In this document: positions 54,481 through 61,686 of the stretch, piece by piece
Numbering within the stretch: the stretch's first letter is position 1
How the letters are laid out: every line of letters begins with the position of its first letter
NCBI GenBank assembly: GCA_965226205.1
Contig: CBDDCJ010000029.1
Coordinates: 20,667 to 84,666 of the forward strand
Reading direction: 5' to 3'
Source of the DNA: Opitutales bacterium
GTDB lineage: Bacteria > Verrucomicrobiota > Verrucomicrobiia > Opitutales > UBA2987
Length of the DNA: 64,000 nucleotides
Translations under genes and position numbers: made by a program
The notes under the pieces: model-generated
Databases searched by the model: none
The model's input: the letters and a program-made list of their open reading frames with translations, nothing else
What the model was told of the DNA's origin: nothing

Positions 54481-54572
54481 TTTGTTCAATATTATCAGGG
54501 CTTGATAGGTTTTTTTTACCCGAGTTTAACTGCGAAAGTAGGGGTTTTATGAGATATTGGAATTTAATTTCA

Positions 54573-56685
54573 CCTTAACAGGCTGTTGAAAAAGACTGGC
54601 TTACTTAGTGGAAGAAACTAAAGTGTCAGGATGCGTGGTAAGATAAATAAACAAACGGATATGCTGGCCTTGATCAACCTGGAAGATCGCATCCCAGCGA
54701 AGCACCCGATCCGCCGCATTAAGGCGATGGTGGACGAAGTGCTCAGGGGGATGAGCGGTACCTTCGATGAGATGTATGAGTCACAGGGACGCGCCTCGAT
54801 ACCGCCGGAGCGTCTGCTCAAAGCGAAGGTACTGATGGCGCTCTATACGGTGCGCAGCGAACGGCAGTTGTGCGAACGGTTGCGCTACGACCTGCTCTTC
54901 CAGTGGTTTCTGCAGATGAACCCATGCGAGTCCGTTTTCGACCATTCGGTCTTCTCCAAAAACATGACTCGATTGCTCGAACACGGCACCTCTGAAATCT
55001 TCTTCGCCGAGGTCGTCGAGTTGGCGCGCCGACACGACTGGGTAAGCAACGAACACTTCAGCGTGGACGTCGATGAAAAGCTTTCGTCCGAAAGAAGAGA
55101 CTGAGGACGGCACCGATCAGCCCGAGGGCAACGGCTGGCAAGATTACAAAGGACAAAAACGCAGTAACCAAACACACGCCAGTCGCACCGACTCGGAGGC
55201 TCACCTGCTCAAAAAAGGCAAAGGCAAGGAAGCCAAACTGTGCTTCAACGCGCACGCGGTAATGGAAAACCGCAACGGACTGTGCGTGCTCATGGACGTG
55301 ACCGCCTCGGTCGGCAGAACCGAAGCGCAACAAGCCAGCGACCAACTGGACGAACTGTGCATGCGCGGATTCGAGCCACGCACTGTCGGAGCCGATGCCG
55401 GCTACCACACCAAAGCCTTTGTGCGGGAGTGCCGAGACCGTGAGATCGAACCTCACGTGGCCCCCCACGGCGGACGTAAAACACGGTAGTGTATAAAAAA
55501 AGAATGTTATTTTGTATTTTTAGCTGTACAGATAGCGTTAGGCAGTTTATTCTTAGTGCATGGTTACTAAAATTATTAATTGTCGGCACTGTGGAAGTGA
55601 AAATATCATTAAATTTGGCAAGACGCCCAACCATAAACAGCGCTACCGCTGCCATGATTGTGGTAAACAAAGCCGCGAAAACCCCACAGTGAAATACACC
55701 GAAGAGCAAAAAGAAATGATCCTTCGAGTCTATCAGGAACGCAGCAGTCTACGCGGTTTACAGCGCGCCTTCGGGGTGAGTCCCAACACCGTTTTGAGTT
55801 GGTTAAAAAAAACGACAATCGCTGCGACCGCTCAAAAGCACGATTCTTGCGGCCCGCCGCCATGATGTCATTGAACTGGACGAACTGTGGTCTTTTGTGG
55901 GACGCAAGAGCGATGCCCAATGGGTTTGGATCGCTCTTTGCCGACGCACCCGTCAAATCCTCTCCTATGCCATTGGGCCTCGGGATTGGTATCGTTGCCG
56001 GGAACTTTACGAGCGTCTGCCACGGGCCTACAAAAGATGTGCCACCTACAGCGACTTTTGGTCCACTTATGATGAAGTCTTTCCTCATAACCGATCCGTG
56101 GGAAAAGAAACCGGTGAAACGGCCCATGTGGAACGATGGAACAATACCCTGCGCCAACGACTGGGTCGTTTCACACGCAAAACCCTCTCCTTTTCCAAGC
56201 TTAAGAGTATGCATGAAACCTGTCTGAGACTTTTCATTCATCAATATAATCAAGAATTAGCCACCATTCCTACTTAATACACTACCTAAAACACCTGGTC
56301 TGGACGGCAGGCACCGCCGTGGCCAACGCTACCGTGCCAGCCAAAAAGTGCGCAAGCGGATCGAAGAAATCTTCGGCTGGGTAAAGACCACCGGAGGCTT
56401 CCGCAAAAGCCGCTACCGGGGCGTGGCCCGCACCCATCTGAGCGCCCACTTCGTCACCGCCGCATGCAACCTTGTGCGAATGGCCAAACTGGCCGAACAG
56501 CCACCACCCATGTTAGCCGGGGCCTAACGGCCCCAAGGCCCCGCTATGCCCCGAGGGGTAATACGGGGCCAGAAATCAACACCAAATCCTTAAAAACGCC
56601 TTATAATGAACCGCAAACATACCTTCTCGGGCCTGTCACGACCTGTCGATAGCTCAATAGTGCGTTTTTCAACAACCTGTTAAGG
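54573..56685 (+). mobile_element. IS5-family element (defective) carrying a nested IS1-family copy; TSD TTCA
   Basis: The IRs are CCTTAACAGGCTGTTGAAAAAG (54573..) and the reverse complement of GTTTTTCAACAACCTGTTAAGG (..56685), matching 20/22. TTCA is at 54569-54572 and 56686-56689. The transposase is in three pieces. Piece one is 54631..55104 (..LCERLRYDLLFQWF..HFSVD). Piece two is 55073..55489, reached after a roughly 22-nt deletion and frameshift (MKSFRPKE..). The C-terminus at 56287..56527 (..RKRIEEIFGWVKTTGGFRKSRYRG..) lies beyond the IS1 insertion. Confidence 0.85.
55485..56286 (+). mobile_element. IS1-family copy C1 (802 bp), nested in the IS5-family element, TSD TAAAACAC
   Basis: The ends are GGTAGTGTATAAAA and TTAATACACTACC. 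insA is at 55560..55865 (zinc finger CRHCGS..CHDCG plus HTH). The insB frame is from about 55810 to 56277 (DELWSFVGRKSDAQWVWIAL..SDFW..HVERWNNTLRQRLGRFTRKTLSFSK). There is an A8 run at 55805-55812. Confidence 0.9.
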
Positions 56686-56746
56686 TTCAAGCCCCCCCCA
56701 TTAGAACCCTTTCGGTTATAACGAAGTGAATCCAATTGCATCAGGA

Positions 56747-57548
56747 GGTAGTGTATAAAAAAAGAATGTTATTTTGTATTTTTAGCTGTACAAATAGCGT
56801 TAGGCAGTTTATTCTTAGTGCATGGTTACTAAAATTATTAATTGTCGGCACTGTGGAAGTGAAAATATCATTAAATTTGGCAAGACGCCCAACCATAAAC
56901 AGCGCTACCGCTGCCATGATTGTGGTAAACAAAGCCGCGAAAACCCCACAGTGAAATACACCGAAGAGCAAAAAGAAATGATCCTTCGAGTCTATCAGGA
57001 ACGCAGCAGTCTACGCGGTTTACAGCGCGCCTTCGGGGTGAGTCCCAACACCGTTTTGAGTTGGTTAAAAAAAACGACAATCGCTGCGACCGCTCAAAAG
57101 CACGATTCTTGCGGCCCGCCGCCATGATGTCATTGAACTGGACGAACTGTGGTCTTTTGTGGGACGCAAGAGCGATGCCCAATGGGTTTGGATCGCTCTT
57201 TGCCGACGCACCCGTCAAATCCTCTCCTATGCCATTGGGCCTCGGGATTGGTATCGTTGCCGGGAACTTTACGAGCGCCTGCCACGGGCCTACAAAAGAT
57301 GTGCCACCTACAGCGACTTTTGGTCCACTTATGATGAAGTCTTTCCTCATAACCGATCCGTGGGAAAAGAAACCGGTGAAACGGCCCATGTGGAACGATG
57401 GAACAATACCCTGCGCCAACGACTGGGTCGTTTCACACGCAAAACCCTCTCCTTTTCCAAGCTTAAGAGTATGCATGAAACCTGTCTGAGACTTTTCATT
57501 CATCAATATAATCAAGAATTAGCCACCATTCCTACTTAATACACTACC
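56747..57548 (+). mobile_element. IS1-family copy C2 (802 bp), TSD CATCAGGA
   Basis: The 8-bp repeat is at 56739-56746 and 57549-57556. insA is at 56822..57127 and insB at ..57539. It has an A8 run. Confidence 0.9.
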
Positions 57549-57887
57549 CATCAGGACTTGTTCAATGTTTTCAGGATTGACAAAATATATTCTGTGCTTT
57601 TCCCCATTTAATTTTTTCAATCGTGAAAATACTTTTTTTTCCTCTTTTGTATTAGGAGTTCTCATATCTGTTATTATAAAAACCGATCTGTTAGGATGTT
57701 TTTCTATTAACTGTTCCTGCTTTTTCCGCAATCTAGAAAGAAGGTATTTTGGAACTTTACCAACCGGCCTATTACCGATTTTTCGTTTATCGATAACTAT
57801 TAATATAAAATCAGCAGTCTCATTTATTGTAGCAAATTTCATTTGGGTTTCAGTCGAATCACGAACGCAAAACTCAATCTCATCGTC

Positions 57888-58689
57888 GGTAGTGTATTAA
57901 GTAGGAATGGTGGCTAATTCTTGATTATATTGATGAATGAAAAGTCTCAGACAGGTTTCATGCATACTCTTAAGCTTGGAAAAGGAGAGGGTTTTGCGTG
58001 TGAAACGACCCAGTCGTTGGCGCAGGGTATTGTTCCATCGTTCCACATGGGCCGTTTCACCGGTTTCTTTTCCCACGGATCGGTTATGAGGAAAGACTTC
58101 ATCATAAGTGGACCAAAAGTCGCTGTAGGTGGCACATCTTTTGTAGGCCCGTGGCAGGCGCTCGTAAAGTTCCCGACAACGATACCAATCCCGAGGCCCA
58201 ATGGCATAGGAGAGGATTTGACGGGTGCGTCGGCAAAGAGCGATCCAAACCCATTGGGCATCGCTCTTGCGCCCCACAAAAGACCACAGTTCGTCCAGTT
58301 CAATGACATCATGACGGCGGGCCGCAAGAATCGTGCTTTTGAGCGGTCGCAGCGATTGTCGTTTTTTTTAACCAACTCAAAACGGTGTTGGGACTCACCC
58401 CGAAGGCGCGCTGTAAACCGCGTAGACTGCTGCGTTCCTGATAGACTCGAAGGATCATTTCTTTTTGCTCTTCGGTGTATTTCACTGTGGGGTTTTCGCG
58501 GCTTTGTTTACCACAATCATGGCAGCGGTAGCGCTGTTTATGGTTGGGCGTCTTGCCAAATTTAATGATATTTTCACTTCCACAGTGCCGACAATTAATA
58601 ATTTTAGTAACCATGCACTAAGAATAAACTGCCTAACGCTATTTGTACAGCTAAAAATACAAAATAACATTCTTTTTTTATACACTACC
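57888..58689 (-). mobile_element. IS1-family copy C3 (802 bp, inverted), TSD TCATCGTC
   Basis: The 8-bp repeat is at 57880-57887 and 58690-58697. insA is at 58309..58614 (minus) and insB at 57897.. (minus). It has a T8 run on the plus strand. Confidence 0.9.
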
Positions 58690-59493
58690 TCATCGTCTTC
58701 TTTACCACTAACCACAAAATGCCAAGACATTATAGCGACGTTTGGTTTTCTTTGTTCACCTTTTAGGTATTAACCTATTCTATCTACGTTAATTATTGCG
58801 CCTGTTGTATGATCGGGCTGGCCTCCTATAAGCGTCGGTTTTGCGATTCCGTGAGCATCCATTTGCAGCCACTGGGCAACAAACAAGTTATTAGTGATTA
58901 TTTCTTGAGCATTTAATACTAGACGTGATTTAGGATATTGAAGACAGCGAAAGGTTGTAGAGCCGGCATCTACAAGAAGTTGAGGACGGGGGATTATATC
59001 CAAAATTAATTTTGAAATTCTTGCTGTTATATGAGCTAGCTCTTCATACCTGTTGTTCACAAGTCTTTCATACATACTTGCATATGAAAACCAATGAACG
59101 CCTGGAATTACGTTTATGATCTCTTCATTATTATCTGCCCATCCTAAACCTAGCCAAGGATAAGTTTTAATAAATTCATCTATTCTTTCGTGTATATCTT
59201 CGATTGTCAGATATTGCTTTAATTTCTCTAATTCATCTCGGTTCCCAAACCCCATATCTTTTAATGTCTGTATTAAATTCTCCATGTGGAATTTTATTAC
59301 CAAGAGATGTGTATCAATTACTAGGCGTTGACGTTCATCGCCATTGATCGCCTGCACCAATACACCCAATAGAAGAATTTCGACAATTTTTTTTCTACTT
59401 TTTTCTTGCTTGTTCATAGGAATAAAAGTAAGGCTAACTGAGAGCCCATAATATGGTGGTCCTTTGAGAAAAAGGTTTTACCTTCGAATTTTT

Positions 59494-60313
59494 GGTAGTG
59501 TATAAAAAAAGAATGTTATTTTGTATTTTTAGCTGTACAAATAGCGTTAGGCAGTTTATTCTTAGTGCATGGTTACTAAAATTATTAATTGTCGGCACTG
59601 TGGAAGTGAAAATATCATTAAATTTGGCAAGACGCCCAACCATAAACAGCGCTACCGCTGCCATGATTGTGGTAAACAAAGCCGCGAAAACCCCACAGTG
59701 AAATACACCGAAGAGCAAAAAGAAATGATCCTTCGAGTCTATCAGGAACGCAGCAGTCTACGCGGTTTACAGCGCGCCTTCGGGGTGAGTCCCAACACCG
59801 TTTTGAGTTGGTTAAAAAAACGACAATCGCTGCGACCGCTCAAAAGCACGATTCTTGCGGCCCGCCGCCATGATGTCATTGAACTGGACGAACTGTGGTC
59901 TTTTGTGGGACGCAAGAGCGATGCCCAATGGGTTTGGATCGCTCTTTGCCGACGCACCCGTCAAATCCTCTCCTATGCCATTGGGCCTCGGGATTGGTAT
60001 CGTTGCCGGGAACTTTACGAGCGTCTGCCACGGGCCTACAAAAGATGTGCCACCTACAGCGACTTTTGGTCCACTTATGATGAAGTCTTTCCTCATAACC
60101 GATCCGTGGGAAAAGAAACCGGTGAAACGGCCCGAAACCGGTGAAACGGCCCATGTGGAACGATGGAACAATACCCTGCGCCAACGACTGGGTCGTTTCA
60201 CACGCAAAACCCTCTCCTTTTCCAAGCTTAAGAGTATGCATGAAACCTGTCTGAGACTTTTCATTCATCAATATAATCAAGAATTAGCCACCATTCCTAC
60301 TTAATACACTACC
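59494..60313 (+). mobile_element. IS1-family copy C4 (820 bp): A7 run fuses insA-insB in frame, 19-bp tandem duplication then truncates it; TSD CGAATTTTT
   Basis: The 9-bp repeat is at 59485-59493 and 60314-60322. ORF 59569..60144 reads ..SWLKKRQSLRPLKSTILAARRHDVIELDELWSFVG.. without a shift. GAAACCGGTGAAACGGCCC is duplicated at 60115-60152, which creates a TGA. Confidence 0.9.
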
Positions 60314-60346
60314 CGAATTTTTAAAGATTGAACTGTTTTCTGCACG

Positions 60347-61006
60347 TCATACGTCGCAATCTGGTATAGAAAATGCCCGATCGAATGTTCGGCAGATAAG
60401 CTTGCCATTATGACCGGTATAGGACAAAGGCATTTCTTTTAAAATTCCGAAAGAATCCTGATACATTTCCTGGAATGAAACCAAGTAATCCTCCGGCGGT
60501 TGACTTGAAATCAGCTGGATACCACAATCTAATGTAATATAAGTTGCTGTAGCTTTAAGCCTAACTATAATTTCTTCATTCGTCGTCATCGTATTTATAG
60601 TACCGGTAGGCTCCAAGAAGTCCGAGAATGGTCTAACGTAAACTGGTTGTCCTTTGACGAAAACTGGACAGTTTCTAATCCGGGTTTTCTTTTTTTTTAG
60701 CACGTAAATCCATAGGCCTTTAACAGCAGGCGAAACGCTGGAGTTGGCGAAATTTTCAATGCATCCGATTATTTGATCTGGTAGTGAACGGATCCTCTCG
60801 GGTAAATACACAATCATGACTTGATCATGATACGAGATATTTTTTACCCGACCCGCTGACAGATTTTTGAAAAATTCGAAAACAAAACGACGTGACGTCT
60901 CCCCTCCATTCAAGCATTCGTCGACGGTATTCGTAAACCAATCCGCCCGTTCGGGACCGTCCTCAGATTTCGGGAGTGTAAAATATTCATTAATATCGTT
61001 AGCCAT
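60347..61006 (-). CDS. Hypothetical protein (219 aa), first gene of the AT-rich cassette
   Basis: Intact ORF MANDINEYFTLPKSEDGPERADWF... I recognise no motif. It is on the same strand as, and about 100 bp (IS removed) upstream of, the DeoRC-like gene. Confidence 0.55.
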   Translation of the reverse strand: MANDINEYFTLPKSEDGPERADWFTNTVDECLNGGETSRRFVFEFFKNLSAGRVKNISYHDQVMIVYLPERIRSLPDQIIGCIENFANSSVSPAVKGLWIYVLKKKKTRIRNCPVFVKGQPVYVRPFSDFLEPTGTINTMTTNEEIIVRLKATATYITLDCGIQLISSQPPEDYLVSFQEMYQDSFGILKEMPLSYTGHNGKLICRTFDRAFSIPDCDV

Positions 61007-61510: not shown

Positions 61511-61686
61511 TGAATCCATGGATTACACCACAAACTCATCAGTCTAACCGCGAATGAACAACAATAAACGCGAATCATTTTTTGGAGGGTTTAGGATTAC
61601 GAAAAGATGTTAGGGCGTGTTAGTTCATTTTATGAATGAAGCTAATGCAGAAGGTATATTCGCGTTCATTGGTGTTCATTCGCGGT
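61511..61686. repeat. Palindromic element built from phased ATTCGCG-type heptamers
   Basis: ACCGCGAATGAACAACAATAAACGCGAATCA (61547-61577) faces ATTCGCGTTCATTGGTGTTCATTCGCGGT (61658-61686). There is also an AATCCATGGATT palindrome near 61513-61524. Confidence 0.65.

Follow-up and report, generated by a model that had tools for sequence, protein, structure and literature searches.

An IS1-family insertion sequence with its catalytic domain in the +1 frame at an A8 run, probably expressed through RNA-polymerase slippage

Four copies of an insertion sequence (IS) of the IS1 family, here called C1 to C4, are found in a 64,000-nt stretch of an Opitutales bacterium contig (CBDDCJ010000029.1; this whole stretch is referred to as the window). 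IS1 is the textbook case of a transposase that is made by -1 ribosomal frameshifting. In C1 to C3, in contrast, the DDE (insB) frame is displaced by +1 relative to insA, and both frames meet at a run of eight As (A8). This raises the question of how such an element can produce a transposase at all. The element is an autonomous IS1-family IS whose transposase is encoded in two overlapping frames joined at A8, and the comparative sequence evidence suggests that the fusion of both parts is probably made by RNA polymerase, which would slip at the run and lose one A.

The features of the four copies are summarized in Table 1. Both their location within 5 kb and the 8-9 bp target duplications of the preliminary description were confirmed, with duplications of 8, 8, 8 and 9 bp read in the sequence. 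C1, C2 and C3 are 802 bp each and differ pairwise by 2-5 substitutions. The terminal inverted-repeat motif occurs four times in the window, compared to zero occurrences expected by chance.

The A run has a length of eight in C1, C2 and C3 and of seven in C4. Across the run of C1, insA is read as TGG TTA AAA AAA ACG and ends at a stop codon (55863-55865) 51 nt past the run. When the frames were read again, the DDE frame was indeed +1 relative to insA in all three A8 copies, as previously described. Upstream, the DDE frame is closed by its own stop codon, a TAA that shares the first As of the run. A shift is therefore possible only from the run onwards, which is the first element of a 59-nt insA/insB overlap. 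Entry into the DDE frame at this site requires that one A is lost or two are gained. With one A fewer, a full-length IS1 transposase of 238 amino acids (aa) is encoded, and this A7 reading (..SWLKK-RQSLRPL..) is collinear with the homologue consensus W-L-K-K-x-x-L-P without an indel. The A8 state thus corresponds to the in-frame state plus one extra A.

A -1 slip would lead into the third frame (..LVKKNDNRCDRSK.., ..LVKKNDNRC..), as had also been noted before, and this frame of the insB region has no Pfam or family match. A hidden third gene in the 142-codon open reading frame (ORF) that spans insB in the -1 frame was considered and rejected. Besides the missing Pfam match, the openness of this ORF is ordinary (synonymous-codon shuffle, P = 0.11; 2.4 stops on average versus 2 observed). 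The +1 frame contains no ATG, GTG or TTG ahead of the invariant first catalytic aspartate of the ELDELW motif, and InsB can therefore not be made alone. The GTG at 55897 was discarded as a start of InsB, as it is located 3' of the invariant ELDELW aspartate and its product would be devoid of the catalytic residue.

In C4, the A7 run joins insA and insB into a single ORF, in agreement with the preliminary description. A tandem duplication of 19 bp inside the DDE domain shifts the frame and ends the protein at 191 aa. Save for element position 47, C4 without this duplication equals C1 without one A. C4 had been described as a constitutive fusion that was later killed; the fusion and its disabling by the duplication are borne out, whichever of the two mutations came first.

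Members of the IS1 family are about 0.7-1.2 kb long, have inverted repeats that start with GGnnnTG, generate target duplications of 8-9 bp and prefer A+T-rich targets. The earlier assignment of the element to this family was substantiated by profile searches. The fused protein matches the NCBIfam profile transpos_IS1 (NF033558) over its whole length (positions 1-199 of 199) with 190.4 bits (cut-off 100), and Pfam PF03400 (DDE_Tnp_IS1) scores 78.8 bits on insB (cut-off 24.1). For the N-terminal part, PF03811 (Zn_ribbon_InsA) reaches 26.1 bits on InsA, which is exactly at the cut-off, and NF050000 (IS1/IS1595 zinc domain) reaches 48 bits on the fused protein (cut-off 28). Weak matches to HTH_Tnp_1 and HTH_23 cover residues 45-86, and the alignment shows conservation of C8, C11, C31 and C34. 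The element ends are 22-bp inverted repeats, 82% complementary, that begin with GGTAGTG. The DDE profile, the InsA-type zinc ribbon with helix-turn-helix, the size, the ends and the duplications all fit, and the element belongs to the IS1 family. It deviates from classical IS1 expression, in which insB' is in the -1 frame at A6C, as its DDE frame is +1. The -1 arrangement is not required for membership, because single-ORF members such as ISCaa1 exist.

Table 1 Features of the four element copies in the window, and other elements with slippery runs in the same metagenome-assembled genome (coordinates with the prefix L101 or L102)
Feature	Position	Strand	Remarks
C1	55485-56286	+	IS1-family element, 802 bp; sits inside another IS
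C1, inverted repeats	55485-55506 and 56265-56286		22 bp, imperfect
C1, target duplication	55477-55484 and 56287-56294		TAAAACAC, 8 bp
C1, insA	55560-55865	+	101 aa, zinc ribbon and helix-turn-helix; from unslipped reading
C1, A8 run	55805-55812	+	register TTA AAA AAA ACG
C1, DDE (insB) frame	55807-56277	+	+1 relative to insA; open from TAA 55804-55806 to stop 56275-56277
C2	56747-57548	+	
C2, target duplication	56739-56746 and 57549-57556		CATCAGGA, 8 bp
C2, insA	56822-57127	+	
C2, A8 run	57067-57074	+	
C2, DDE frame	57069-57539	+	
C3	57888-58689	-	inverted
C3, target duplication	57880-57887 and 58690-58697		TCATCGTC, 8 bp
C3, insA	58309-58614	-	
C3, A8 run	58362-58369	-	T8 on the + strand
C3, DDE frame	57897-58367	-	
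C4	59494-60313	+	820 bp
C4, target duplication	59485-59493 and 60314-60322		CGAATTTTT, 9 bp
C4, A7 run	59814-59820	+	
C4, fused ORF	59569-60144	+	191 aa
C4, tandem duplication	60115-60133 and 60134-60152	+	GAAACCGGTGAAACGGCCC, 19 bp, two copies, inside DDE domain
IS3-family element	L101:1112-2337		23 copies listed; ATA CTA AAA AAA ACG GTG; orfB -1; motif and register as in the IS1-type element
Second IS1-family element	L101:780-1100		at least 11 copies; GAA TGG ATT AAA AAA AAG TCC TGA; -1 (A_AAA_AAG; A8G), W-I-K-K boundary
Another IS3-family element	L102:6257-7436		4 copies listed; TGG CTA AAA AAA AAG (A9); orfB +1, IS1447-like

Homopolymers are the main error of long reads, and the contigs originate from ~10x long-read metagenome assemblies, judged by names such as ctg470736_12x_l. 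An artefact was therefore weighed, in which the true run is A7 everywhere and was over-called by the assembler. To this end, run lengths were surveyed in the metagenome-assembled genome (MAG) CBDDEL01 of the Opitutales host (Verrucomicrobiota), comprising 91 stretches of 8 kb and the window. All counts from this MAG, here and below, are among the matches listed, and its copy counts are lower bounds. The run is A8 in at least 115 copies (~94% of more than 120), A7 in three, A9 in one and interrupted (AAAAGAAA) in three. In the left inverted repeat, a run of A7 served as a control in the same copies and shows no variation (108 of 108); of two further control runs, a T5 is invariant (101 of 101) and an A5 is kept in 112 of 113. 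The run is likewise A8 in a second assembly, ERZ21829562. A separate JGI metagenome holds a diverged copy (contig Ga0255800_10017166; 97.4% identity, 21 substitutions) with A8, both ORFs intact and its own 8-bp target duplication. Moreover, dozens of diverged metagenome relatives as well as plasmids of cultured strains share the +1 arrangement. A8 is hence genuine and dominant; the artefact is effectively refuted, and the homopolymer caveat of the preliminary description can be dropped. A7 copies seen in one assembly could partly be consensus errors.

The A8 copies are the active form of the element and have transposed many times. In 62 of 87 full-length copies, the run is A8, insA is intact and the +1 frame is open over 156 codons. 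Perfect target duplications flank 53 of 85 copies (8 bp in 50 of these 53), which shows that the copies arose by separate transposition events. Among the 802-bp copies, 21 of 42 variable sites are located at codon position 3 and 7 of 42 at position 2, if insA is read in frame 0 and insB in frame +1. When the JGI copy is compared with the window element, 7 of the codon changes in the +1-frame DDE part are synonymous and 1 is non-synonymous, and the numbers for insA are 7 and 2, respectively; when the insB region is read in each of the other frames, the proportion is 1 synonymous to 7 non-synonymous. In three clades of relatives that consist of +1 types only, the ratio of non-synonymous to synonymous substitution rates (dN/dS) of the +1-frame DDE part amounts to 0.06-0.12, with dS above 1. 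Strong purifying selection acts on the DDE part in the +1 frame. Since this holds within all-+1 clades, the split arrangement has persisted and the DDE frame must be expressed.

Expression could in principle be left to other copies. According to this alternative, the A8 copies are frameshift mutants that are moved by a few A7 copies, and the run is an on/off switch at the DNA level. A few intact A7 copies are indeed found in the same genome (L001, L023_6498 and those encoding the 238-aa proteins P0001, P0121 and P0132) and could supply transposase in trans. The run is also a mutational hot spot, with a variable length in 4 of 119 uninterrupted runs versus 0 of 108 for the A7 control, and one copy, encoding protein P0131, is a second-site in-frame revertant. 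The rare A7 variants, namely C4 and the few intact ones elsewhere, are constitutive in-frame fusions that result from replication slippage. Yet expansion is not seen for any A7 lineage: the A7 copies occur once each, on different haplotypes that are nested among A8 haplotypes. Non-autonomous copies should decay neutrally, which is at odds with the low dN/dS in the all-+1 clades, where dS is saturated, and with the 7:1 excess of synonymous changes between two A8 lineages. Furthermore, split relatives outnumber in-frame relatives carrying the run by ~38 to 4, and the IS1 transposase acts preferentially in cis. Supply in trans is thus an unlikely explanation for the A8 copies. In another improbable reading, the run would act as a three-state heritable gearbox, where single-base replication slips swap the in-frame, +1 and -1 states of an element and transposition bursts follow rare A7 revertants.

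P0131 (239 aa, from a 96-kb ENA contig) is derived from an A8 copy in which a 1-nt deletion ~35 nt downstream restores a single ORF and alters the linker over 12 aa (..WLKKTTIAATAQKHDSLAARRHD..). In L044_3920, L032_1660 and L049_2554, the run is interrupted (AAAAGAAA) and the frames are still out of register. P0131 and the interrupted variants are useful natural controls for slippage. The intact A7 copy L001:2926-3726 in ERZ25074053 lacks a target duplication and resembles a recombinant of two A8 copies, since its left-end markers match L010 and its right-end markers L009. In ERZ21829562, these two A8 copies are found at this site on either side of a segment with an IS21. L001 is either a real deletion with a change in run length or an assembly collapse.

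To place the element among its relatives, the 80 best tblastn matches in public metagenomes were collected, and 76 of them were typed by separate searches with the N- and C-terminal halves and by inspection by eye. A +1 shift is needed in 25 and a -1 shift in 13, while 38 are in-frame. In every split relative, the shift site is located at the W-L/I-K-K codons. Of the 38 split relatives, 36 carry seven or more As there without interruption, whereas the runs of in-frame relatives are mostly broken or absent. For the run-bearing loci read by eye, the type agrees with a simple count of the As that follow the Leu/Ile codon: six or nine are in-frame, seven are +1 and eight are -1 (A_AAA_AAG). A neighbour-joining tree of the DDE part shows the +1 loci interleaved with the -1 loci, sometimes as close sisters, for example L174 (-1, A8) beside L177 (+1, A7). 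Two +1-type relatives, L104 and L118, seem to need a second shift back near the ELDELW codons, which could be due to decay, a sequencing error or a second recoding site.

The arrangement is not confined to metagenomes. An A8 run with a +1 frame is found on plasmids of the cultured bacteria Moraxella osloensis, Piscirickettsia salmonis and Acaryochloris marina, and -1 types with A6-7 followed by G are represented by ISSru3 and by elements of Deinococcus, Leptolyngbya and Picosynechococcus. In the RefSeq plasmids examined, -1 forms are joined to one coding sequence annotated as 'IS1 family transposase', whereas +1 forms are unannotated or annotated as insA only. The element thus belongs to a widespread IS1 sub-clade and is not a one-off.

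The only conserved nucleotide feature at the junction is the run itself. The 0-frame codon that follows it is ACG in the element and AGC, AGA, AGT or GGC in relatives. Single-sequence folds gave no stimulatory structure at the run better than shuffled sequences (z +0.2 to +1.3 upstream, -0.7 downstream), RNAalifold returned 0 conserved pairs around the run for 22 +1-type sequences, and no conserved purine-rich or Shine-Dalgarno-like motif was found upstream of the run in relatives. These observations bear on a shift by the ribosome, either +1 or -2, in which the mRNA remains A8 and the peptidyl-tRNA-Lys slips one base forward on AAA_AAA_A, so that CGA is next read in the DDE frame. The run lets tRNA-Lys re-pair perfectly in the +1 frame, A-runs are known ribosomal slip sites, e.g. 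for -1 shifts at A_AAA_AAG (PMC4066793), and some recoding has to occur because the DDE frame is under selection. However, four As would suffice for such a slip, yet the split relatives almost invariably keep seven or more unbroken. The codon that follows the run is neither constant nor a stop, unlike in the prfB/Ty1 type, where a slow-to-decode or stop codon is conserved in the A site, often with a Shine-Dalgarno-like stimulator upstream, and neither a Shine-Dalgarno-like sequence nor an RNA structure is conserved at the run. The direction of ribosomal frameshifting is normally conserved among orthologues (PMC3711429), whereas close relatives of the element switch direction. In addition, no IS with +1 ribosomal frameshifting had been identified according to a review from 2016, and the studied +1 cases are transcriptional realignments (PMC5009743). 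The +1 frameshifting that the preliminary description offered as an alternative is accordingly improbable, and less likely than slippage of the polymerase. If true, it would be the first instance of an IS shown to use +1 ribosomal frameshifting, judged by the same review (PMC5009743).

Slippage of RNA polymerase at A8 remains the preferred reading, which the preliminary description had named as probable alongside +1 frameshifting; it is supported by the dominance of A8, by split relatives in both directions and by purifying selection. Under this model, faithful transcription and translation would yield only the 101-aa InsA, which by analogy with IS1 may act as a DNA-binding regulator. In a minority of transcripts, RNA polymerase would slip on the T8 template and drop one A (A7) or add two (A10). 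Normal translation of A7 or A10 RNA would then give a 238- or 239-aa InsAB fusion (..SWLKK(K)RQSLRPL..), the putative DDE transposase, and A9 RNA would give InsA fused to a by-product of the -1 frame. As the fusion would arise from slipped minority transcripts only, the run would set a low transposase dose.

Taken together, the conserved run, the shifts in either direction among close relatives, the variation in the codon that follows and the lack of a conserved RNA structure correspond to the signature that has been published for programmed transcriptional realignment. Such realignment is inferred by Baranov et al. (2005) from runs that are conserved together with the ORF organization (PMC1088944), and by Antonov et al. 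(2013) from the presence of +1 and -1 clusters with A-rich sites in one transposase family (PMC3711429). Correspondingly, the element has a run of at least seven at the orfA/orfB overlap, the run and the two-ORF layout are kept in homologues, and the direction is not conserved. For IS1447 (IS3 family, A9, orfB +1), cDNA clones with A8 (9 of 52) and A10 (8 of 52) were obtained, and seven or more As suffice (PMC6211511). Several points weigh against polymerase slippage in the element. The threshold of Baranov et al. is A9 and hence longer than A8, even though working A8 variants are noted (PMC1088944). An upstream hairpin as in the Roseiflexus IS630 or IS1447, an accessory feature, was not found at the run. 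The relatives are best matches and not a random sample, the A-run could in principle allow ribosomal slippage of tRNA-Lys, and the intact A7 copies with their possible supply in trans are to be counted here as well.

Further slippery elements are present in the same MAG (Table 1). Outside the element, 38 of 113 A/T runs of at least 8 bases fall in three other repeats. At the same A8 site (TA_AAA_AAA_ACG), the shift directions in this one genome are opposite, namely +1 in the IS1-type and -1 in the IS3-type element. A single host thus contains all four combinations. The simplest explanation is that the RNA polymerase of this host can slip in both directions on A8-A9, although this evidence is circumstantial. 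The IS1-type/IS3-type pair at an identical motif is a natural test bed for slippage by polymerase versus ribosome.

Compared to the IS1 of E. coli, the element shares the family profiles (NF033558, PF03400, PF03811), the size of ~0.8 kb, the inverted repeats that start with GGnnnTG, the 8-9 bp duplications and the A+T-rich targets. The logic is shared as well: the short InsA is made by default, and the transposase (predicted for the element) is an InsA-InsB fusion that is made rarely. In both, the shift site follows the helix-turn-helix and marks the same domain boundary. They differ in that the ribosome shifts by -1 at A6C in E. coli IS1, whereas the element shifts by +1 at A8, most likely through RNA polymerase. 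Protein identity to IS1 copies on E. coli plasmids is ~34%. The IS1 elements of Salinibacter (ISSru3), Deinococcus, Leptolyngbya and Picosynechococcus encode ~40-45% identical proteins and have their frameshift at an A-run followed by G, but in the -1 direction; ISSru3 and the Deinococcus element share the W-L-K-K boundary with the element. Single-ORF IS1 elements (ISCaa1 and most of the ~240-aa metagenomic homologues) are 50-61% identical over the full length, have no frameshift and usually lack a long A-run at K-K. The homologues number ~5,300.

The closest mechanistic analogue is IS1447 of Clostridium thermocellum, an IS3-family element in which orfB is likewise +1, the loss of one A leads to the fusion, and both A(n-1) and A(n+1) transcripts occur (PMC6211511). 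In contrast to the element, IS1447 has an integrase-type DDE domain (rve) and a stem-loop adjoining its run, the like of which was not detected in the element; IS1447 was tested experimentally, whereas the element is known from sequence alone. In transposases of the IS630 family and of the DDE_Tnp_1 type, which form paired +1 and -1 clusters, orfA and orfB similarly meet at a conserved run of at least 7-8 As, and the shift direction varies among orthologues (PMC3711429, PMC1088944), but these belong to other transposase families than IS1.

Within the IS1 family, frameshifting has been described for E. coli IS1 at A6C and for ISCaa4 at A6G, and an ISfinder survey of 63 IS1 entries sought -1 shifts only. 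In the GeneTack survey of Antonov et al. (2013), the sole listed IS1 cluster (DDE_Tnp_IS1; 230 genes, 8 genera) is -1 (PMC3711429), and the supplement has no IS1 entry. The literature consulted thus describes IS1-family frameshifting only as -1, although ISfinder or Sharma et al. (2011) may already list a +1 element.

With regard to the genomic context, C2 and C3 are inverted relative to each other and 339 bp apart. One and the same ORF on the minus strand is interrupted by both copies, whose target duplications are separate. C2, C3 and C4 are located within an A+T-rich island with 34-41% G+C versus ~52% in the genome (57500-62000 examined). The ORFs flanking C2-C4 (58770-59417 and 60347-61006, both on the minus strand) have no significant Pfam match. 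In the same island, 3' of C4, a 29-nt inverted repeat (61547-61575 and 61658-61686) is found, with arms that are 93% complementary and 82 nt apart.

C1 is inserted in an IS of the IS1182/IS5 type (54572-56686), which is ~1.3 kb long without C1. Inverted repeats of 22 nt (54572-54593 and 56665-56686; 95% complementary) form the two ends of this IS, and the pieces of its transposase are located at 54631-55104 (DUF772), 55073-55489 (DDE_Tnp_1) and 56348-56527 (DDE_Tnp_1_6). The DUF772 and DDE_Tnp_1 pieces are +1 apart in frame, and their junction lacks a long A-run.

A scan of the region for promoters and terminators gave consensus-level matches only. One of these concerns the antisense strand of the C2 run, whose T8 (57067-57074) forms the T-tract of a terminator-like hairpin at 57077-57093 on the minus strand (7 pairs, three of them G-T); three such sites are found in the region versus 0.8 expected. 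A search of Rfam over 55300-60500 gave no family match except for a chance snoRNA hit (E = 0.42).

Transcriptional realignment with a +1 outcome is established for the IS630, IS5-like and IS3 families, and the element and its relatives are probably a new IS1-family case of this known type of recoding rather than a new principle. If polymerase slippage is the mechanism, as appears probable, transcriptional realignment would be extended to a fourth major IS family. A large and widespread IS1 sub-clade keeps a run of A7-A9 at the same domain boundary. In many of its members, including the element with its at least 115 A8 copies, the catalytic domain is encoded in the +1 frame and cannot be reached by the classical -1 mechanism. 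The +1 location of the DDE frame also accounts for the erroneous annotation of such copies as pseudogenes or as a lone insA.

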